Source of the DNA: a virus
Lineage: Duplodnaviria > Heunggongvirae > Uroviricota > Caudoviricetes
IMG/VR virus record: IMGVR_UViG_3300047554_000527
Coordinates: 72,387-136,386 of that record
Direction: 5' to 3' (one strand)
Length of the DNA: 64,000 nucleotides
Shown: one piece after another, positions 64 through 30,569 of the stretch
How the letters are laid out: every line of letters begins with the position of its first letter
Numbering within the stretch: the stretch's first letter is position 1
Notes under the pieces: model-generated
The model's database searches: none
What the model saw: only the letters and a program-made list of their open reading frames with translations
Told to the model about the DNA's origin: nothing
Position numbers and translations under genes: made by a program

Positions 64-513
64 TTAGAACTTGTACTTTAGACCGGCAGCAACAGTGTTA
101 CCGTCAAATGCCTTAACACGGTCTTGACCGTATTGGCGACGAGCATCAACTGTAAAATCAACTGCCTTACTCAATGGAACAGCGGCACCAACACCTACGG
201 TCATTGCGTAACCTTCAACTGCGGAACTGTTATGCAGATGAGCAACACCGAGCTTAGGAGTGATTGTGACTGGGCCTAGTTTGGCTGCGTCATAACCAAC
301 TGTTAGGCTCAAACGATCTTGATCGTTAGCTTCCTTAGTGAAACGGTCGAAGCCGGCTGTGACACCAACCTTACCATACTTTTGGCCAAGAGTAACTCCA
401 TAACCAGTGTTGTTTTCACCAACGTATTCACGGCTGGCATTAACGCCTACTTCTAATGCAGATGCGGCGGTAGCAGCCAAAGCGATCAAAGATGCGATTG
501 CAATTTTCTTCAT
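64..513 (-). CDS. Outer-membrane beta-barrel protein (OmpA-TM/Ail/Lom-like)
   Basis: Sec signal peptide MKKIAIASLIALAATAASA, alternating amphipathic strands, C-terminal GLKYKF ending in Phe (Bam signal). Confidence 0.85.
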   Translation of the reverse strand: MKKIAIASLIALAATAASALEVGVNASREYVGENNTGYGVTLGQKYGKVGVTAGFDRFTKEANDQDRLSLTVGYDAAKLGPVTITPKLGVAHLHNSSAVEGYAMTVGVGAAVPLSKAVDFTVDARRQYGQDRVKAFDGNTVAAGLKYKF

Positions 514-624: not shown

Positions 625-945
625 CTGAGTTTCTGTTGCGAGGTATGTCTTACCCCAGGACGCTTTTAATCAAGCGGCCAATGCGTAACTTTCGTCATTT
701 GCATTTATTTTTGATTTGCTTTTTACGACTACTCCTGTCGTGCTGTCCACTCTGTTACTCTTTGCCCTGTCGAAACCATGACTGGCCCATCATAAAAGGA
801 CTAGAGCAAATACTACCACTACAACTACTACACCTATTGCTAGGCTACCTAAGTTGTCATCCATGCTAATCTCCTTTATGGTGGACCAGGCGGGAGTCGA
901 ACCCGCGTCCAGAACACTTTTCTCTTTGCTTCATACAGCAATAAC
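625..945 (-). ncRNA. ssrA: Circularly permuted two-piece tmRNA (acceptor piece ~945-879, intervening segment 878-789, coding piece 788 to ~625); tag (A)ANDESYALAA
   Basis: T-arm and acceptor end GACGCGGGTTCGACTCCCGCCTGGTCCACCA ends at 879. The 5' end GGGCCAGTCATGGTTTCGACAGGG starts at 788. GGGCCAG pairs with CTGGTCC and includes G3:U70. Tag ORF GCAAATGACGAAAGTTACGCATTGGCCGCTTGA at 702-670. The CCA piece precedes the 5' piece. Confidence 0.93.
790..864 (-). CDS. 24-aa single-pass membrane peptide MDDNLGSLAIGVVVVVVVFALVLL inside the tmRNA intervening segment
   Basis: SD AAAGGAG immediately after the CCA, 6 nt before ATG(864); uninterrupted hydrophobic stretch; TGA ends 1 nt before the tmRNA 5' G. 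Confidence 0.65.
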   Translation of the reverse strand: MDDNLGSLAIGVVVVVVVFALVLL

Positions 946-1084: not shown

Positions 1085-1837
1085 TTATTTAACTTCTGTT
1101 TTAAAAAATTTTTCTACAATACTGCCTGCAGGATCATATTCTCCTTGGTAGATAGCATGGTTATATAAGTTTGGGTACTTATGATGATTATTATGCAATC
1201 CTTCACTTAAGGAGATAATTTGAAACTGTGTGTTTGCACTAAGATCTAATGTATCATAATTTTTATAGAAAAATTTTCCAGAATTATGCGATAAAAATGT
1301 TCTAACTAAGTTAGTGTGTATCGTTGTGAAACCTACAGCAGTTAAAAGAAATAGTGTAATTCTGTAGTCTATTAACAGAGTCAATACTAAAATAAACAGC
1401 CAAATATGCAAATAATGTTTGTGAAAGAAATATACTGTTGGGTCTTTTATAAGATCATGTGGGATCCTAATTTTCTTCTTTAAGAAATATTCAACACTGT
1501 TTAAAGTAAAGAAAAAATTCTTAAAAATTCCATCTCTAGAGTTATGCGGATCTAAATCTGTATCACTGTGCTTGTGATGATGTCTATGAACAGCAACCGC
1601 ATGTATGATACTACCTTGGCCTGACAACAGGTGTGTTAGAAGTAAGAATATTTTTCTTTTCGGCCCTGTTTCAAAACTTCTATGACTTAGGTATCTGTGA
1701 TAACAAATTGCATTGCCAAAAATAGAAATTACAAAATGAAAACAAAATGCTGCCAAGATCCAAAATATACTAGCATAGACTATGCTATAAACAAGCGATG
1801 AGATTCCTAATATCCAAAACAATCTTACCGACCACAT
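1085..1837 (-). CDS. Membrane fatty acid desaturase (delta-9 type)
   Basis: His boxes HRYLSH, HRHHHKH, HNNHH and transmembrane segments. Confidence 0.9.
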   Translation of the reverse strand: MWSVRLFWILGISSLVYSIVYASIFWILAAFCFHFVISIFGNAICYHRYLSHRSFETGPKRKIFLLLTHLLSGQGSIIHAVAVHRHHHKHSDTDLDPHNSRDGIFKNFFFTLNSVEYFLKKKIRIPHDLIKDPTVYFFHKHYLHIWLFILVLTLLIDYRITLFLLTAVGFTTIHTNLVRTFLSHNSGKFFYKNYDTLDLSANTQFQIISLSEGLHNNHHKYPNLYNHAIYQGEYDPAGSIVEKFFKTEVK

Positions 1838-5266: not shown

Positions 5267-6367
5267 TTAAAGATCAGGTAACTCTTCGTATTCTACAGTG
5301 TCACTCATGACACCGATGACGTAGTTAGTGCTTTCATTTTCTTGTAGTGCAGTCTGTTTCTTATTGATATTAACGTGCTTGTTAAACCAAGGAATTGGAC
5401 TGGTCTTGGGATGTTCTTCTTGGTACTTAATTCCAATTTCTTTAAGACGAGTAAATGCTGTGTAATCAACAAAGTCTTTTAGAATCTGTGCGTTAAGTCC
5501 AATGACTACACCCTTCTTGAATAGATAATCTGCCCAGGCTTTTTCTTCTGCAATAACTTCAAGATACATTGCATAAACTTCTTGAGCACACTCTTGTTCT
5601 AGTGTTAGGAAGTCTGGGTCGTCTTTGGTAACGTTATTGATCAGCCACGCTGTCCAGTCAGCATGTAGAATTTCATCTTGTAGGATCAAGCTAATGATGT
5701 TGCCGTTACCGATATAGATTTTATTTTCTACCATTGCTAGACTTGTAGCAAAGCTCACCATAAAGCGTAGAGCCTCCAATGCGTATGATGCGTGTAATGC
5801 CATCCAGATGGCTCGCTTATGGACCATTGTATCAATCTCTTCGCCCAACTCTTTACGACAATTGAGCTGATGCAGACTCTCATAGTAACGACCAATGTTA
5901 GCAGCCATACCAACAATTTCAGTCGTATCGTGAATCTTGTTAAATTCTTCTTTAGGTACTCCATATACGTTCCTAATAATATGACTGTAGCTCTTAGAGT
6001 GAATGTTAGTTTCAAAGAAACTCCAGTTACTGACTAATGCTTCGAGTTCGGGGATCGAGATAACAGGGCTGAAAACTTGGTTAGGAGCCCTACCTTGAAT
6101 GCTATCTAGAGCAGTCTGGCGAAGTAGGTTAGAAGTAAAAATATGCTTGACCGCATCAGTGGCTTCTTTGTGATCAATTTTATCTTTGGTTAAACTAATT
6201 TCTTCTGGTACCCAGAAGAAGCCACGGGCTAGTTCTTCGTACTTTTGAATCTTAGGATACTTAACTTCCTCAAAACGCTGTACTGTTACAGGACCTTCTG
6301 GATCCAGGAACATCTTACGCTTGAGATAATTTGTTTGTTTTGATAAGTTGTATTGTGCTTTACTCAT
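5267..6367 (-). CDS. nrdB: Ribonucleotide reductase class Ia beta subunit
   Basis: FFWVPEEI, ETNIHSKSY, DEILH di-iron motifs; C-terminal QENESTNY. Confidence 0.95.
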   Translation of the reverse strand: MSKAQYNLSKQTNYLKRKMFLDPEGPVTVQRFEEVKYPKIQKYEELARGFFWVPEEISLTKDKIDHKEATDAVKHIFTSNLLRQTALDSIQGRAPNQVFSPVISIPELEALVSNWSFFETNIHSKSYSHIIRNVYGVPKEEFNKIHDTTEIVGMAANIGRYYESLHQLNCRKELGEEIDTMVHKRAIWMALHASYALEALRFMVSFATSLAMVENKIYIGNGNIISLILQDEILHADWTAWLINNVTKDDPDFLTLEQECAQEVYAMYLEVIAEEKAWADYLFKKGVVIGLNAQILKDFVDYTAFTRLKEIGIKYQEEHPKTSPIPWFNKHVNINKKQTALQENESTNYVIGVMSDTVEYEELPDL

Positions 6368-9503: not shown

Positions 9504-9938
9504 TTACCTTGGCCTAGTTACTTCAATTAGATTTTCCAGGTGAAATGACTCAGGAATATCTCTAGGCACGTTTATACCATTATCTACATAGTTAATAACA
9601 AACTCGTCATCGATGAACACTAGATTGTACTGCTTGGACCTGTCTGCATCTGTATATGTTTTTATCTCGATTTTTGAGTCCTTAAACTTGGCAGTTAATT
9701 TAAGCGTCCAAGCCATCATCAGTACTTTGGTGAAATCATCATACTTATTTTCTATAAGTATTTCCCAAGGAGTGGGCCAACGTTTAGGATTGTAGGGATC
9801 TACGTTACGGTTAAATGGCACGTAAGGAGGATGATCCCAAAATGCAATTAGGTCTTCTAAGGGAGTCGGAGAGCTGTCGAGCAGATGCCGATGCTCTGCC
9901 CAGGCGGACAGCCTCTCATCTGGAGTAAGTTCAAACAT
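9504..9938 (-). CDS. Hypothetical protein
   Basis: 144-aa ORF coupled to the upstream structural gene. Confidence 0.6.
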   Translation of the reverse strand: MFELTPDERLSAWAEHRHLLDSSPTPLEDLIAFWDHPPYVPFNRNVDPYNPKRWPTPWEILIENKYDDFTKVLMMAWTLKLTAKFKDSKIEIKTYTDADRSKQYNLVFIDDEFVINYVDNGINVPRDIPESFHLENLIEVTRPR

Positions 9939-11533
9939 TATCTATAATACGCTACTGTGTAAATCATTGTACCTGTGCCTGCGGCTACAGGATTAGTATA
10001 TTGTACTGCCAGTGTATCATAGAAATCAACAGGGCCGTGATCTAAAAAGCCCGCGGAAAATACAGTATCTCCGTCCGAACTGCCGGCGACTGCGTATGAG
10101 TCCTTATAGGAAATACCAGCCGGACCAGCAACTACACTTAGGGTTCCTTTTCTGGCAATACTTGCCTTTTCCAATGTGTAGTCAATAGTAACGCTAGTTA
10201 CTGTTGTAGCATAAGGAATTTTGAATAGAGTCTGTGTTAGTGTGCTTTCACTAATGGTTGCACGATCCATAAACTTTAATCGAACCTGTGCTGTACCTTC
10301 GATAACTTCGTATTGAGGAGTATCCAAATCAGTAGTCTGCATGTACCATAGGCGTTCAAAATTATCATTGGTAGAACTATTACCGTGGCTTAAGAACGTA
10401 ATAATTGGAGTTACCGGTTCTGCATCCCCGTCTAGGTTATTACCCACGTTGATAAAGTGATTGTTCTCGCTGGCAATTTGAATATTAGTACCAGTGGTTG
10501 CACCTGCCCAAATAGCCTGTCTTTCAATATCTTGGAAAAGGTTATCTTGAATATTGATGCGATAAGGACCAATGCCTGTAGCAGTAGTCACTGTTTCTGC
10601 AAGTGTAATCCCTTTGAACAAGTTTTTAAACTTATTTTCCTTAATAGAAATATCATTAACTTGCCAATCAGAAATGATCGGATAAGACAGATCTTCAAAC
10701 TGGCATCGCTCAATGACGACTTCTGACGTATTATATCCTAGTTCAATTGCAGAGTTTTGATTAGTTGCTGTGTTGCCAGGAACATATACACCTTGGAACT
10801 TAACATCAGAAACTTCGGCTTCGTATGCATAGTTTAAATCGATAAACGGAGTTGTTTGAATAGTTTCAATTGTAGATGTATGCTCAAGCGTCATACCCGA
10901 GATCTTGATACGTTGCGTAACACCCTTCTCTAGATCAGTATCTCCATTGATGTCTTTAGTTGCAAAAATAGTTGTGTTACCAGGGTTGATACTTCTAATG
11001 ATTGTTCTGTCAATGCCATCACCTTTCAGTGTTACATACGGAGGTAGATAAACTGTAGCAGTTGTGTAATACACACCTGCAGGAATTCTAAAAGGAACAC
11101 GACTCTTAGCTTGATCTTTATCAGAGTTAAAGTAAATCTCGTCTATAGCTTTTTGTAACTTAGCAGTAGTGTCAGTACTATCTTCGAAGCCAAAATCAAA
11201 CGCTGTAACAGCATCGTCTAGCTTTTCTTGCAGTGTTCTAACTACGGGATTGTTAGCATCCGGGCCTGTTTCAATTGCTGAAAGACCGTGTCCTCGATAG
11301 GTATAGTCTGTAGCAGTAAAGTTAGCTGTGCTGATTAGATCAAATAGACGTGCTTCAGTAAGAATCTCACTGTTACCAACAGCAGGCGCACCTTCTGCAA
11401 CACTGCCGTTACCAATGAACAAACGCTGTTCATCGACTGACCAACCCATTTCGCCACTGGCTAATTGCGGCATACCCTGCTCAGCAGTTTGCCCTCTTCT
11501 AATTTGTATTTTCGAGATCTGAATAACAGCCAT
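9938..11533 (-). CDS. Virion structural protein (baseplate/tail) with pectin-lyase-like beta-helix
   Basis: MAVIQISKIQIRRG ... LASGEMGW N-terminus; DDTAKLQKAID, IPAGVYY, LKGDG beta-helix cap. Confidence 0.65.
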   Translation of the reverse strand: MAVIQISKIQIRRGQTAEQGMPQLASGEMGWSVDEQRLFIGNGSVAEGAPAVGNSEILTEARLFDLISTANFTATDYTYRGHGLSAIETGPDANNPVVRTLQEKLDDAVTAFDFGFEDSTDTTAKLQKAIDEIYFNSDKDQAKSRVPFRIPAGVYYTTATVYLPPYVTLKGDGIDRTIIRSINPGNTTIFATKDINGDTDLEKGVTQRIKISGMTLEHTSTIETIQTTPFIDLNYAYEAEVSDVKFQGVYVPGNTATNQNSAIELGYNTSEVVIERCQFEDLSYPIISDWQVNDISIKENKFKNLFKGITLAETVTTATGIGPYRINIQDNLFQDIERQAIWAGATTGTNIQIASENNHFINVGNNLDGDAEPVTPIITFLSHGNSSTNDNFERLWYMQTTDLDTPQYEVIEGTAQVRLKFMDRATISESTLTQTLFKIPYATTVTSVTIDYTLEKASIARKGTLSVVAGPAGISYKDSYAVAGSSDGDTVFSAGFLDHGPVDFYDTLAVQYTNPVAAGTGTMIYTVAYYR

Positions 11534-12700: not shown

Positions 12701-14292
12701 TTAGATAGTCTTGCAATGATGCTGTGCGCTTCGTTTAGTTTGGCTGCAAATAGTTTGCGGCTTTCACGCATTTCACGTCCGGACATTTCAGCACCGCCTG
12801 CGGCAGCATCGGCAGCACCAAACTCGTCGCCTGCTGGAATTTCTTCGTTGCCTGCGTTCATGCTATCCATACCTGCTTCCGGAGGCATCATATCACCGCC
12901 CATTGTATCCATTGGGCTAGACTCGCCTGCTAGAACTGCAACTGCATTGCTTAACTGCTCACGTGCTTGTGTTAGAGTGTTAAGAGCTGTTTCTAGTGCA
13001 GGAGCAACTGCTTGCTTGAATGTTTCTGCTTGCTCTTGACCAAAGTTAGCACGAATAGCATCTGCTAGTTCAATCATAGATTTTGTTTGATACTGGCCAA
13101 CACGAGTCATCCAGCTGGTAAAGTCATTTACCATATCAGTACCGGCAGTAATAGCTTTAGCCTTGCCTTCTTCGTCTTCAGCTAGTAGTCTGCGAATACT
13201 TTCATTAACTACTTTAACATTTTTCTTGTGTTGGCTTTCTTTCATAGGTTCTTTCTTTCCTTTACGTAGCAACTCGAAGTCTTGCTTATCGAGCTTGCCG
13301 TTATTATTTTTGTCTAGTTTCTTTTGATCTGGATCTTTGAAAGCTTCTTTAACTTTCTTTTCGCCAGCTGCCTTTTTCATAGGCTCTTTCTTGTTACCAT
13401 CTTTATCTAAATCTAGAAAATCTGGCTTAGAACCTTCTTTAACTTTAGCACTCTTCTTGGCTTTTTTAACATCACTGTCATCACCGCCGTCAGTGAATGT
13501 GCTAGACTTACGTGTATAAACTGTACCTGTGCCAGTTTCTTTCCTGTCAAACTTACCAGTAGTCTTTTCCTTTTCTGCACGAGCTTTTGCGTCTGCTACT
13601 GTTGGAAAGCCTTCTTCAACTGCTTCGTCATACTTGTCGTATTTTTTTCTAATAGGATCAAGATCCTTGCCATCTTTACCAGCTTTAGCCAATGCCTGCA
13701 TACCAGCTTTGCCATATTTTTCATGACCCTTAGCCGCACGACTCATTGTCTGCTTGTCGCCTTCTTTTACTGGATATTCTTTACCACCGACTTTAACTTT
13801 TTCGCCCTTTTGAATACCGTCAGCTTTGGCTTTGCGTACTGCGTTACCGAATGCGTTTCCTTCGGTGTTTTCACTTTCTGCAACTTTCTTGGCCTGCGCT
13901 GTAGCAATAGCATAAGCACTGCTCTTGCCTTTGCCTGTACGCTTTTCGGGATTGTCACGCTTGATAGCTTTAACAATCTCTTCTTTCTTTTTCTTTTCAG
14001 CACCGGACAACTTACGTTCCATAATAGCAATGCTTTCACCTAGCATTTCTTTAATGCGTGTGTTTAGCAATCCTACTAGCTGTTTGTTCTTTTGATAAGT
14101 CTCGTTAGTTAATAGATCGTTAAAGTTGCTTTTAGCTTCTAACTGATGTAGTTCAGTACGGATCTTGTTACGAGCGTCTTCTAGCTCTTCACGAGTGTAT
14201 CTGTTTAGATCGACTTTAACGCCGAACTTTTTGTAGAGGTTCTCATTTAACGTATGAGAACTTGCGGGTTTTGTGAAATCGGTGGTCTTCAT
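12697..14292 (-). CDS. Large charged head core/scaffold-like protein
   Basis: 531 aa, K/E-rich low-complexity modules, coiled-coil segments; preceded by TAAATA. Confidence 0.5.
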   Translation of the reverse strand: MKTTDFTKPASSHTLNENLYKKFGVKVDLNRYTREELEDARNKIRTELHQLEAKSNFNDLLTNETYQKNKQLVGLLNTRIKEMLGESIAIMERKLSGAEKKKKEEIVKAIKRDNPEKRTGKGKSSAYAIATAQAKKVAESENTEGNAFGNAVRKAKADGIQKGEKVKVGGKEYPVKEGDKQTMSRAAKGHEKYGKAGMQALAKAGKDGKDLDPIRKKYDKYDEAVEEGFPTVADAKARAEKEKTTGKFDRKETGTGTVYTRKSSTFTDGGDDSDVKKAKKSAKVKEGSKPDFLDLDKDGNKKEPMKKAAGEKKVKEAFKDPDQKKLDKNNNGKLDKQDFELLRKGKKEPMKESQHKKNVKVVNESIRRLLAEDEEGKAKAITAGTDMVNDFTSWMTRVGQYQTKSMIELADAIRANFGQEQAETFKQAVAPALETALNTLTQAREQLSNAVAVLAGESSPMDTMGGDMMPPEAGMDSMNAGNEEIPAGDEFGAADAAAGGAEMSGREMRESRKLFAAKLNEAHSIIARLSK

Positions 14293-26153: not shown

Positions 26154-29100
26154 TTATTCTGGGTTAACATTACCGGAGATCACCCATTGTTCTTCTCCAA
26201 TCTTCAGTAGTGTGACCATACCATAGTTCTCTATGATATACCAACTGTTGTTACCAGTGCCTGCCAACATCACACTGATTGAGCCACCTTCTGGGCCAAT
26301 ACCGATAGTACTATTGGTAGTATTGACAACGGTAATCACAGAACCTATAGGGAATGGCACACGACTGTTGTAAGGGATCACAATGTTGTCATTGGCCTCA
26401 TTGCACAGGATATGATGTCCGCGATCTTTCAATCCCAACATATATCTCTGACCGAAATATCTGCGTTGTGGGATATCTGTTGCCGAAGTGGTCTGTTTAG
26501 AACCATCGGCAAACACAATGCTACCACCATCAGTGTCGTGAATAGTTTCAATGGTCAAGTCTGGATACCAACTATTAACATAGTAAAGGCCTGTGCCTGT
26601 TGTGACTGCTGTGCCGGTACTGATTGTAGGAGCTACTGTTAGGGCACCGGTATAACCGGTACTGGTGTCAATTATGTTGATGTTATAGTTAACATTGGCT
26701 AGTCCTGTACCGTTCCAGTTACTAGTTTCATCATTGACATCCTGATAACTGAATGAACCGTACTCGCCAGTACCTGAGCCATCTAGTGGCAAACGAACTG
26801 CTAGACCCGAGTCATAGTTGTCAGTCTCAAAATAACCAGCGAGATAGAAACTGTCATTATCTACACTAAGTCCACGAGGTGTGCCTAGCCAGGTATCATC
26901 ATTGGTAGTGGCCGATAACCAACGCTTGTAGACTGTTTCTCCACTGGCTGTCATTTGGATTACTTTTATAGCATCGTCATCGAATTCTTCGTGATATTGT
27001 TCTGCGACTACTATTAGATTACCATTAGCTGTACGAGCGATACAAGCATCGTCACCGCCTTGGGTTTTACGCTGCCACTTAACTGTGCCGGTGCTGTCTA
27101 GTTTAGTGATCACTGTGTCGCCATCGTCGTTGCTCTCGTGTACCACATAGATGTCTGTGCCGATAGTTATGACACTTTGAGCCAAACAGTCGTAGCCAAC
27201 TTCGTTGAGTTGTCGAACCCACTGTAGTGTGCCTGTGCTGTTAAACTTGAAGGCTAGGGCAAGATTTCGGAAGTTGCCTGTGTTTAATTCGCCATAGCCT
27301 CGACCCACTGCGATGATGTTGTCACTGCTGTCCACTGCTACAGCATAGATTGCGTCATCAATGTCAATGCCTGTATTGAAAGTACGCTGCCAAGTAGGAG
27401 TGACTACGAGTCCTTCCATACTCATTGGATAGGTAAGGCTCCACGAACCTGAACCACTAAAGTCAACCTGTGTGGTTGTGTCTAGTTTCCAAGTTGTGCT
27501 TTGACCAGTACCAGTGGCTTCGTGTATGTATTGGACACCCCCGCCACTGACGCTAACTCTAACAGTTAGATCATTAGCAGGACTTGTGCCGCCTAAACTT
27601 GTGCCAGGAATTACTACGATATCATTTTCGACATAGTTTGTGCCACCAGCAGTAGCATTATAGTATGTGTGACTTGCGTAGTTATTGCTGCCAAATGGAC
27701 CTTGGAATGTAAGTTCAAATCCTGAACCTACATTGTGATTAGTACCTGATATTCCGTAGGAAGTTGTTGCTCCGCCACCTAGGCTAAACGAAATGCTCAT
27801 TATAGCCGGTGATGTAACTCCGCCAGGAACTGTTGTTGTTCCTGTAAATTGACTGCTGGCGTATAAAGCGGTGGTAGTAAATGTGTATTCAGCACCTTCA
27901 GTTAATTGATTGATAGTAATAGTAAAAACTGTTCCGATTGGGGCACTTTGTATTGCTGCCAATAGTGCGCTGTTACTAAATCTACTGTCATCAACATATA
28001 TTGTGCCGCCATCGAAATACATCAATCCGCCTGAGGTATAATCACTACCGGCAATAGAACCACTGTATGATGTAGCACCGCCGGCCGCTGTGCCTGTATT
28101 ACTTACACTGGTAATAGCACCAGCATCTACAGCCTCTACTGTGATAACGCAATCGTTGGTAGGACTAGTCCCTCCGATGTCAGTGCCTAAAACTTTGATC
28201 TTGTGCCCTGGTAGATAGTTTGTGCCACCGCTAGCAATACCAGCACTATAAGTTCCATTACCATTGTTGATAATGTCAAATGTAGCACCTGTACCTTGTC
28301 GTACTGTACCAGTCAATCCTGTGTATTGTTCTAGATAAAGAATGTCCTCAAACGGGCTAATGCCTGTGCCACCAATCTGCCAATTTGTAGTTGGGATAGC
28401 AGGAAGGTCACTTCTCAATACCCGAATACTGCCTGTGGTACTGCCAGTCTGTGCTGTGACAGGTATTTCAGCACTGAAGTCACCGCGTTTTTCACCGCCT
28501 AACACATAGACGTCTTCGCTGTTCCAAGCGATATCCAGTAAAAGAACATCGTCGCTGGTGTCGCTGAATTTCACAGAGTCTAAAATACGACCAGTGTCTT
28601 GATCTAGAGTGACTAAAATACTGTAGGTATAACTGCCGTACATTTCAGCCAGGACCATAAGATTGCCCGAGGCTGGATTCATACTTAAGGCATTAACACG
28701 ACCACCATCGCCGTTGTCATCTTCTTCAATCAAGATACCCCATAGTCTATCGCCTGTAGGTGAAATCTTCATCACAAATGGTTGACTGTTGTCGTCATCA
28801 TCACCGCCAACATACAAATAGCCTTGGCTATCCACACAAGTAGCACGACCTATAATGTCATCGCTGTTATTATAACTAGTGCCAATGGCCATCAAGTAGC
28901 CCACTTGACTCTGTGTAAGTTTCACATCACCGTCGTTAGGTATAGTTAGTGTGCCGTCAGCACCAAATGTATAAGTGTAGGTCTCGCTGTTGACCAAATT
29001 GTTGGCTATGCGAGCCGCTTCGTCTGCTGTGATTGCGGAATCTTCTGCTAGAATAGTTTCAGAGAAGGTAGTAACAACCAATGAACTGTTCGTAGCCTCG

Positions 29101-30569
29101 TGTGTGACAAAACGTCCTGGCACACGGCTTTCTGTAAATGATAAGTTGCCAATGGTCAATTCTGTACCATCTGTAGGCAACTGTACCACAAAGTAATCTT
29201 GTTCATTGTCTGCGGTTTCGCTGTATTGAGCACCGTTGGGATTGTTGGTGCTAAATCCATAACCATCTACGGCAAACTTGCTGCCAAATACTGCCACAGC
29301 CTGTCCGCGATCAAAGTCGCTGGAGTCTTCGTTCAAGTTTATAACATCTACATAGCGTTGCCAAATTACAGCACCTAGAGTGTTGTAGCGAGCCACGATC
29401 TGTTTACTGGTACGAAGTATTTCTTGTAATCCTTCTGGTGCTTCCTCAAACCCGCCGTCAGTTTTGCTCTCATAGGTAGTTGAAGACAAGTAGATATCAC
29501 CTATGTCAGTAGCTGTTAATCCTACTACAAATGATCCACAGGGTCCTGGACCAATTCTGCGGGTCCACTGTACTGTACCGCTGGAGTTTAGTTTTACCAG
29601 TATAGCAGCGGATTTATCTGTATTTCCGTCAATCTGGTTAACTACATCGACTTGATAGGCACCTACGGCATAGATGTTGCCCTGTGCGTCACTAGCACAG
29701 TCACCGCCAGTCATACTGTAGCCGTCAGGTGCTTCTAGTAACTTGCTCCACACACGATCTAGATTTTGATCTAGTTTTTCAATAAACATCTTGTCTAGAT
29801 CAGATCCACTGTCATAGTAATAACCAGTGATGAATACATTTTCGTCACCGTCAACATCCATACCACTGACCACGGTGATTTCTGGACTTTCTAAGGCCAG
29901 TGTTTTCTTCACGGATACTGATCCGTCTGTACTGCTGATTTCCAAGACCAACACAGCCAGTGGAGGGCCACCGTCGGCTGCTTGGGCCACTAATGCCAAT
30001 GTTGTTGAACTCTTTTCTTCGATGAAAGCACTATAGATTGGAAGTGGTCCAACGTCATAACTCTTCTTCCACAATATGCTGCCAGTGGTGCTGAACTTGA
30101 TCACAGTGATTTCGGGATCACCATCGCTGACCGTAATGTAAGCACAATCATTGCTGTCCACGGCTAACGCTGTTGGATCAACTTGAAAGAATGACTTTTG
30201 CCAGGCCACAGCACCAGCGGCTGTGTATTTGGTAATAACTGTGACATCGTCTTGATCCTGGGCGGCTCTGGTCAATGCGTATAAGTTGCCCTCGCTGTCA
30301 TAACGCAGGCCACGAGGTTCAGTGTTGTAGCCGTCTCTACGCTGTGTAGCGATCCAATGCTCTGTACTGCCTGCTTGGACTACAACTGAACCATCGTCTG
30401 TGAGTGTATCCCCACCTGCGTGTGATAAATCAGCCCAGGCAGTTTCGCCATCACCGTATTTGATCTTGCCAGTGTCTGTTTCTAAACCTGGTTCACCCGC
30501 GGCTAAGATAGGATTTTCTGTAGTCCAGTTGGCCGCTGTGTCACGGCGTAGTTTGATTCTTGTTGTCAT
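26154..30569 (-). CDS. Large tail fibre/adhesin: Mtd-type N-terminal module plus two beta-propeller regions
   Basis: MTTRIKLRRDTAANW...LAAGEPGLETDTGKIKYGDG..W; repeated AVDSxxNIY/KFxxxGxxxWxR blades; C-terminal FADGSKQT and VPFPIG...WVISG module. Confidence 0.8.
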   Translation of the reverse strand: MTTRIKLRRDTAANWTTENPILAAGEPGLETDTGKIKYGDGETAWADLSHAGGDTLTDDGSVVVQAGSTEHWIATQRRDGYNTEPRGLRYDSEGNLYALTRAAQDQDDVTVITKYTAAGAVAWQKSFFQVDPTALAVDSNDCAYITVSDGDPEITVIKFSTTGSILWKKSYDVGPLPIYSAFIEEKSSTTLALVAQAADGGPPLAVLVLEISSTDGSVSVKKTLALESPEITVVSGMDVDGDENVFITGYYYDSGSDLDKMFIEKLDQNLDRVWSKLLEAPDGYSMTGGDCASDAQGNIYAVGAYQVDVVNQIDGNTDKSAAILVKLNSSGTVQWTRRIGPGPCGSFVVGLTATDIGDIYLSSTTYESKTDGGFEEAPEGLQEILRTSKQIVARYNTLGAVIWQRYVDVINLNEDSSDFDRGQAVAVFGSKFAVDGYGFSTNNPNGAQYSETADNEQDYFVVQLPTDGTELTIGNLSFTESRVPGRFVTHEATNSSLVVTTFSETILAEDSAITADEAARIANNLVNSETYTYTFGADGTLTIPNDGDVKLTQSQVGYLMAIGTSYNNSDDIIGRATCVDSQGYLYVGGDDDDNSQPFVMKISPTGDRLWGILIEEDDNGDGGRVNALSMNPASGNLMVLAEMYGSYTYSILVTLDQDTGRILDSVKFSDTSDDVLLLDIAWNSEDVYVLGGEKRGDFSAEIPVTAQTGSTTGSIRVLRSDLPAIPTTNWQIGGTGISPFEDILYLEQYTGLTGTVRQGTGATFDIINNGNGTYSAGIASGGTNYLPGHKIKVLGTDIGGTSPTNDCVITVEAVDAGAITSVSNTGTAAGGATSYSGSIAGSDYTSGGLMYFDGGTIYVDDSRFSNSALLAAIQSAPIGTVFTITINQLTEGAEYTFTTTALYASSQFTGTTTVPGGVTSPAIMSISFSLGGGATTSYGISGTNHNVGSGFELTFQGPFGSNNYASHTYYNATAGGTNYVENDIVVIPGTSLGGTSPANDLTVRVSVSGGGVQYIHEATGTGQSTTWKLDTTTQVDFSGSGSWSLTYPMSMEGLVVTPTWQRTFNTGIDIDDAIYAVAVDSSDNIIAVGRGYGELNTGNFRNLALAFKFNSTGTLQWVRQLNEVGYDCLAQSVITIGTDIYVVHESNDDGDTVITKLDSTGTVKWQRKTQGGDDACIARTANGNLIVVAEQYHEEFDDDAIKVIQMTASGETVYKRWLSATTNDDTWLGTPRGLSVDNDSFYLAGYFETDNYDSGLAVRLPLDGSGTGEYGSFSYQDVNDETSNWNGTGLANVNYNINIIDTSTGYTGALTVAPTISTGTAVTTGTGLYYVNSWYPDLTIETIHDTDGGSIVFADGSKQTTSATDIPQRRYFGQRYMLGLKDRGHHILCNEANDNIVIPYNSRVPFPIGSVITVVNTTNSTIGIGPEGGSISVMLAGTGNNSWYIIENYGMVTLLKIGEEQWVISGNVNPE

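Follow-up and report, generated by a model that had tools for sequence, protein, structure and literature searches.

We consider it highly probable that the spacer excised from the two-piece tmRNA of a phage contains a small-protein gene, that this spacer is a cargo slot, and that the gene is packed into the helix by which the slot is closed. The case is built on the anatomy of the tmRNA gene, on protein-level purifying selection acting on the spacer's open reading frame (ORF), on a conserved, covarying helix that pairs the two ends of the spacer, and on the cassette-like exchange of spacers between related loci.

The tmRNA is carried by a window of 64,000 nucleotides (the whole stretch of DNA that was analysed) within an IMG/VR virus contig of 140.6 kb, which CheckV rates as ~39% complete. 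The record encodes tail fibres, a virion protein, ribonucleotide reductase and DNA ligase, and its phage nature is therefore confirmed; the window stretch is found in DNA of freshwater and aquatic metagenomes. SmpB was not found in the 140.6-kb record, which at ~39% completeness is uninformative. Next to the tmRNA lie, on one side, a fatty-acid desaturase homologue (1085-1837, minus strand; Pfam FA_desaturase, E = 8e-9) and, on the other, a YfaZ-like outer-membrane protein gene (64-513, minus strand), whose sigma-70 promoter at 587-558 matches the consensus perfectly. YfaZ-like genes adjoin the tmRNA in 14 related loci, with the spacer ORF present or absent. Elsewhere in the window, two large tail-fibre-like proteins (26154-30569 and 9938-11533, both on the minus strand) have an N-terminal Mtd_N domain, that is, the N-terminal domain of the major tropism determinant; these domains hint that the proteins could be targets of a diversity-generating retroelement. 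Between 40000 and 58000 the G+C content is 0.33-0.39, markedly lower than in the stretches on either side of it (20-40 kb and 58-64 kb), where it is 0.42-0.47.

The tmRNA gene itself is complete, circularly permuted and of the beta type, and lies on the minus strand at 600-990, as found by reading the sequence, by ARAGORN and by Rfam. ARAGORN reports a permuted 'tmRNA*' at 579-971 with the tag ANDESYALAA. The Rfam model RF04321 (tmRNA_permuted) scores 129.7 bits at 670-940 (gathering cut-off 47) and RF01850 (beta_tmRNA) scores 129.2 bits at 603-992 (gathering cut-off 84); the match is also recovered when the whole IMG/VR record is scanned. The acceptor piece, which is the 3' half of the tRNA-like domain, spans 879-940 in the RF04321 and RF01850 alignments and in ARAGORN. 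In the sequence and the Rfam alignments it contains the T-arm (906-890), the 3' strand of the acceptor stem (889-883), the discriminator A (882) and the CCA (881-879). The coding piece (603-788; ARAGORN and Rfam, with coordinates from the sequence) opens with the 5' acceptor strand GGGCCAG (788-782) and holds the tag frame (702-670), in which ANDESYALAA, with its hydrophobic ..LAA end, is followed by a stop; a terminal hairpin with a U-tract is seen at 624-600. The CCA thus lies upstream of both the 5' G (788) and the tag frame, which is the permuted order. In 49 of 49 relatives the G3-U alanine identity pair (columns 5/119) is U-G, and the acceptor-stem pairs 2/122, 3/121 and 4/120 covary among these 49 sequences.

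A putative sigma-70-type promoter of the tmRNA precursor can be read from the sequence at 950-978, with TTGACA at 978-973, a 17-nt spacer, TG at 958-957 and TTAAAT at 955-950; a strict scan missed it, owing to the T at the second base of its -10 hexamer. Of 48 related loci, only 11 have a comparable sigma-70-like motif upstream, and we therefore regard this promoter as tentative and not as a conserved feature.

Between the end of the CCA and the mature 5' G lies the intervening segment (IVS) of 90 nt, at 878-789, delimited by the sequence, ARAGORN and Rfam. In the Rfam beta_tmRNA alignment it appears as ~60 nt inserted relative to the bacterial consensus IVS of ~30 nt. This bacterial consensus IVS is non-coding, and excision of the IVS from two-piece tmRNAs is known from work on Caulobacter and beta-proteobacteria. 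By analogy with these known two-piece tmRNAs, segment 878-789 is presumed to be removed during maturation, with the presumed RNase P site between 789 and 788.

An earlier note on this DNA had described the IVS as nearly filled by a Shine-Dalgarno (SD) sequence, an ATG at 864 and a hydrophobic ORF of 24 codons, and this description holds to the base by sequence, ARAGORN and Rfam. The SD region TAAAGGAG occupies 878-871, with the core AGGAG at 875-871, and is separated by 6 nt from the ATG (864-862); 24 codons (864-793) encode MDDNLGSLAIGVVVVVVVFALVLL, and are followed by a TGA (792-790). A single U (789) stands between this TGA and the mature 5' G of the tmRNA, so the ORF does end, as had been claimed, 1 nt before the presumed RNase P site. 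The peptide has an acidic N-terminus followed by a hydrophobic stretch of 17 residues with a mean Kyte-Doolittle value of 3.49, and is long enough to pass a membrane once, in keeping with the single-pass peptide that had been proposed. Judged by its sequence, the product most likely spans the inner membrane once and is made by the phage-infected cell. It hit none of the Pfam families at E <= 10 in a profile search, and tblastn against 50,697 phage records returned no match; within Pfam and cultured phages it thus has no homologue of known function.

When the IVS was shuffled 20,000 times with dinucleotides preserved, an ORF of at least 24 codons arose in 0.47% of shuffles, and an SD combined with an ORF of at least 20 codons in 0.085%; with the SD requirement dropped, ORFs of at least 20 codons arose in 2%. 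Comparison between loci gives far stronger evidence than shuffling of this one sequence. In viral contigs, the peptide family of the window (M[D/N]D..L..G.....VFALVLL and its close kin) is represented by 29 distinct nucleotide versions, all of which keep the ORF frame open, while stops occur in 29 of 29 in frame +1 and in 23 of 29 in frame +2. On the tree of these versions, parsimony places 73 changes at the first codon position, 31 at the second and 115 at the third, and 119 changes are synonymous as against 100 non-synonymous at a synonymous-site fraction of 0.254. The resulting dN/dS in the ORF frame is ~0.29 (binomial P = 7e-20), a value drawn from an alignment of 24 codons that is near saturation for distant pairs, in which the 3' end of the ORF is partly constrained by RNA pairing instead of protein; calculated in the same way, the shifted control frames give 0.67 and 2.17. 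A T-rich sequence in itself favours codons for hydrophobic residues. Insertions and deletions in the family are whole codons. The ATG stays at a constant distance from the SD, which reads TAAGGAG, TAAAGGAG, AAAGGAG or AAAGAGG in all ORF-bearing relatives. The loci sharing the window's peptide family are distant carriers, as the proteins adjoining their tmRNAs are only 45-64% identical to those of the window.

Collecting homologous phage loci was the check that the earlier note had proposed, and its outcome agrees with the proposal: in the window's family the SD, the ORF and the hydrophobicity are all kept under a synonymous excess, with neither stops nor frameshifts in any of the 29 versions. 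From these comparisons the IVS ORF is a genuine gene under protein-level purifying selection. Considering the open frame, the selection, the whole-codon indels and the distant carriers together, we hold with considerable confidence that it is a real, translated gene.

The contrary view would be that there is no gene, and that the IVS is a structured spacer whose ORF is a by-product of a T-rich hairpin. Relatives that lack the ORF do end in TGAT or TAAT and start A-rich, with an SD-like AAAG..., and chance alone yields ORFs of at least 20 codons at the 2% rate given above. However, a by-product would not account for a frame open in 29 of 29 versions with the other frames closed, for substitutions with three-base periodicity, for indels of whole codons or for constant ATG-SD spacing, and IVSs of 45-75 nt almost never carry such ORFs (2 weak cases in 81). 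The absence of a gene is thus strongly disfavoured already, and we consider it extremely improbable.

The earlier note had also pointed to a strong SD directly after the CCA. The SD is indeed present at 878-871, but it is not freely available, as it is sequestered in a conserved helix that closes the IVS. In minimum-free-energy (MFE) and partition-function folds, the 5' strand of this helix (866-880, made up of the CA of the CCA, the SD and the spacer) pairs with a 3' strand at 791-804, which the alignment also identifies and which consists of the last four codons (CTA GTC CTT TTA) and the TG of the stop. When the acceptor strands are folded together with the IVS, the helix is 12-14 bp long and is stacked on that of the acceptor. 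Both kinds of fold give the SD in the window's precursor a probability of 0.00 of being unpaired. Across 49 distinct ORF-bearing IVSs, the median of this probability is 0.00 for the full precursor versus 0.57 for the nascent RNA, modelled as the transcript without its last 16 nt. The prediction is therefore that the SD is exposed only while the transcript is nascent and becomes masked once the precursor is complete. Its complete sequestration in the thermodynamically favoured fold implies that steady-state translation should be poor, and its position in a conserved helix implies that ribosome loading is probably limited to the nascent transcript.

Conservation of the helix is evident in the alignment of the same 49 sequences. 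The 20 pairs of the acceptor stem and closing helix are paired in 96.5% of cells, whereas control registers slid by 1-3 columns are paired in only 35-53%, and the observed covariation score was reached by 0 of 500 shuffles. Columns 12 and 112 hold the base that opens the IVS and the one just ahead of the stop; they covary (UA in 38, AU in 10), and this toggles the last codon between Leu and Phe. From family to family, the C-terminal residues of the peptides (..VLL, ..VFL, ..HVFF) change in step with the SD strand; since the helix columns covary, it is mostly the need to pair with this strand that sets these residues. A helix of this kind is also present in relatives that lack the ORF (AAAGCATATTAG ... 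CTAATATGCTTTTGAT), and they too end in TGAT or TAAT, which indicates that the stop beside the RNase P site is inherited from the helix. The position of the TGA is thus a feature of the helix into which the gene was fitted, and not a special design of the gene.

The folds lead us to a model of how message and tmRNA precursor could share one molecule, to which we give an even chance. A ribosome would load only on the nascent transcript, during the ~75 nt of synthesis before the 3' strand of the helix is made, and once loaded would translate a single time through the helix region. The size of the ribosome footprint is known, and on that basis a ribosome reading the last codons would cover the 5' acceptor strand, so that the tRNA-like domain could not fold in the meantime. 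Once the ribosome has terminated at the UGA, which is 1 nt short of the RNase P site, the helix and the acceptor stem would be able to fold, and the folded helix would mask the SD and present the tRNA-like domain for processing. Translation and maturation would be sequential on each molecule and never simultaneous, and peptide output would be roughly tied to transcription of the tmRNA. The central proposal of the earlier note, a precursor that acts as both message and tmRNA precursor, fares well in one part: a selected ORF inside the removed segment of a tmRNA makes the precursor bifunctional on comparative evidence. Its other part, translation itself, is something that we infer.

The same geometry could be read differently, with the act of translation being what matters and the peptide merely a cis-acting leader: ribosome passage would unwind the helix and acceptor stem, and so time RNase P cleavage and 3' processing or protect the precursor. 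With the stop 1 nt from the RNase P site, a terminating ribosome would presumably have to cover the 5' acceptor strand and unfold it, and the helix overlaps the ORF in every family. A leader of this type would not, however, explain selection at the amino-acid level, where changes are fewest at the second codon position, hydrophobicity is kept and dN/dS is 0.29; nor would it explain that ~70% of related phage IVSs of the same length (among the matches listed), and all bacterial ones seen, do without an ORF. We therefore see a leader function as very unlikely.

RNA data bear on expression to a small extent. Two contigs of 139 and 121 nt, both from the same freshwater metatranscriptome library, span the whole IVS of relatives, from the coding piece to the acceptor piece, with 14-18 differences. 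They are a faint hint of expression, as they could stem from DNA carry-over or from untranslated precursor, and contigs cannot show RNA ends. The other three of the four RNA libraries (X16, X19 and X20) gave no contig across the window's IVS; their contigs stop at or skip the IVS because they come from relatives with other IVSs. With the IVS alone as query, no RNA library with a match was listed.

How widely such genes occur was addressed by scanning viral contigs for a T-loop and a 5' tmRNA motif 98-128 nt apart, which gave at least 120 matches. Among the matches listed, an unbiased sample, 107 loci were confirmed as permuted tmRNAs, with 89 distinct IVSs of 75-105 nt, and 28-30 of these 89 have an SD, a start and an ORF. 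SD-ORFs are found in 2 of 81 distinct IVSs of 45-75 nt, both weak, and in 9 of 39 distinct IVSs of 105-135 nt. A second viral scan, which preselected an SD-like IVS start, found an ORF for a peptide of 19-27 residues in 48 of 48 script-confirmed permuted loci. With both viral scans pooled, the stop falls exactly 1 nt before the tmRNA 5' G in 52 of 61 SD-ORFs among the matches listed.

The IVS behaves like an exchangeable cassette. When 782-945 of the window is compared with one related locus (L003, 5560-5800), the acceptor piece and the 5' part of the coding piece are identical, and the IVS is unrelated and ORF-less, which is a cassette-like replacement of the spacer. The nearest relative by neighbouring protein (L207; 85% amino-acid identity) carries a different peptide family, ending in HVYF. 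The L207 locus (minus strand, ~5380-5620) is a tmRNA-like gene with an atypical T-loop GGCAGTG, a GGATCGAT 5' motif and the HVYF-family IVS ORF, and here the peptide gene may be persisting in a tmRNA that is itself drifting apart from its relatives.

Other cargo in the IVS includes at least six further hydrophobic peptide families, a few non-hydrophobic peptides, a mini-protein with four cysteines and whole tRNA genes. The four-cysteine mini-protein (MKYTALCPSCF..KHKCFS..) is found in a 101-nt IVS at L004 (2981-3126), L017, L023, L025, L085 and L102; it is conserved and its copies vary synonymously. Its frame has no stop inside the IVS and continues for at least 27 nt into the mature tmRNA 5' end, so that RNase P cleavage would leave a non-stop message. 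Complete tRNA genes lie inside the phage IVSs of L092 (Tyr, 1663-2060), L095 (Asn, 1318-1695) and L115 (Tyr, 13490-13894), and the tmRNAs of these three loci have unusually long tags of 16-23 residues. The best explanation for this variety is that the IVS tolerates any sequence whose two ends form the closing helix, and that phages of this group use it as a slot for small cargo genes.

So far, the SD-ORF in the IVS appears to be specific to phages. The same length-based pattern, run over one genome per prokaryote species (185,579 species), gave 105 matches; only four of these were beta-like permuted tmRNAs with a long IVS, and none of the four had an SD-ORF. The sole ORF-bearing match in the species genomes (L268, CAZCDW010000126.1) is a contig of 7.6 kb that had been assigned to an 'uncultured Bifidobacterium' MAG. 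Beside its phage-type tmRNA it bears a phage-type YfaZ-like neighbour and is therefore probably a phage contig, most plausibly a mis-binned one from a freshwater phage. A search of genome contigs with the SD-type pattern was set aside, as its matches were mostly chance or standard CCA ends, with a permuted tmRNA in only 1 of 120. The cultured phages BUCT-ZZ01, Marzo and BUDD have permuted tmRNAs of the beta type, but no convincing SD-ORF in the IVS, and thus offer no ready experimental system.

What the peptide does can be approached through the company it keeps. Ibs, ShoB and TisB-type toxins are in the same size range, and the peptide is short and almost purely hydrophobic, its SD is masked by long-range pairing with the ORF's 3' end, and several unrelated hydrophobic peptide families occupy the same place. 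These features would fit a processing-gated peptide resembling a type I toxin, silenced by fold-back, whose message is activated or destroyed by tmRNA maturation and which acts in host shut-off, lysis timing or exclusion. On the other hand, no antisense RNA or antitoxin is evident at the locus, where the only antisense promoter-like site (854-882, plus strand) matches at 9 of 12 positions, within chance expectation. If exonucleases opened the helix from its 3' side, the stop and the final codons would be the first to be lost, and the same slot also holds non-hydrophobic peptides, the four-cysteine protein and tRNAs. We therefore judge such a toxin improbable. A membrane-modulating or host-takeover role, as opposed to that of a lethal toxin, is a possibility that we put forward only tentatively. 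The variety of cargo favours a generic phage small membrane protein (host takeover or exclusion) over a function specific to tmRNA.

A more far-reaching reading is that the gene and the tmRNA are functionally coupled and do not merely share a locus: the closing helix would make the message one-shot and tied to transcription, and this message would later become a non-stop substrate of its own tmRNA. After RNase P cleavage, 3'-to-5' trimming towards the CCA would remove the stop first and free the SD. If this were true, the phage's own ribosome-rescue RNA would serve to set the dose of a membrane-active peptide, to tag it or to clear it. The presence of unrelated peptides and tRNAs in the same slot argues against a function specific to this peptide and this tmRNA, and we think such coupling unlikely.

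With the spacer read as a cargo slot, a supposedly disposable piece of a stable RNA would double as messenger RNA. In annotation and in models, IVSs of tmRNAs are treated as disposable spacers, and ORFs of <30 codons inside RNA genes are passed over by gene callers. Here, about one third of the unique phage IVSs of 75-105 nt sampled (among the matches listed) carry micro-genes, mostly for membrane peptides, which points to small phage proteins as a class that has stayed hidden. It also suggests a new way in which the precursor of a stable RNA can accommodate a message, whose SD and stop are part of the processing helix, and offers a compact natural system in which translation, RNA folding and RNase P processing compete on one molecule. 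We suggest that annotation pipelines and tmRNA databases should scan the IVS for cargo.

A full-text literature search gave no description of a protein-coding tmRNA IVS, in line with the earlier note, whose author knew of no described case. Phage-borne two-piece tmRNAs are already known (PMC9004378), as are a tRNA and a repeat inside the IVS (PMC11915505); what is new here is the pairing of the SD and spacer with the last four codons and stop in a covarying closing helix. The two-piece tmRNAs of Betaproteobacteria have the same order of acceptor piece, CCA, IVS and coding piece (RF01850, RF04321; PMC11915505), and the same T-arm, G3-U pair, ..ALAA tag and terminal hairpin. Their consensus IVS is ~30 nt, whereas the one described here is 90 nt long, nearly filled by an SD-ORF and phage-borne. 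In isolate phages, two-piece tmRNAs have been reported in 53 cases, among them the OM43 phage Melnitz and the pelagimyophages (PMC9004378), which are likewise aquatic phages with a complete permuted ssrA; the Melnitz paper describes a glutamine riboswitch but no IVS ORF (PMC9004378). As to cargo, the tmRNA database paper reports only a tRNA-Ala, which it calls unique, and a repeat element inside the IVS of permuted tmRNAs (PMC11915505); these are inserted cargo as here, although none reported there codes for protein.

Outside tmRNA, the closest parallel is the S23p ORF in the IVS of 23S rRNA in Coxiella burnetii and Leptospira, which encodes a soluble protein of ~100 residues that its authors suggest is not made in vivo (PMC4990558). 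In both cases, an ORF lies within a stem-closed segment excised from the precursor of a stable RNA. The S23p case involves rRNA and a soluble protein, whereas the case described here involves tmRNA and a membrane-type peptide of 24 residues, with a clear selection signal and an SD of its own. The hok-type mRNAs of type I toxins encode small hydrophobic peptides, and their SD is silenced by a 5'-3' fold-back of the message. Pairing of the SD with the 3' end of the message is thus shared with the IVS gene; unlike in hok-type mRNAs, no antisense antitoxin is seen here, and the pairing partner is the end of the ORF itself. Finally, dual-function RNAs that encode small peptides, such as SgrS/SgrT and RNAIII/delta-haemolysin (PMC5521070), combine an RNA function and a small-peptide message on one transcript, as the tmRNA precursor would. 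In SgrS/SgrT and RNAIII the ORF belongs to the mature RNA, whereas here it lies in the part that is discarded, with its SD and stop within the processing helix.
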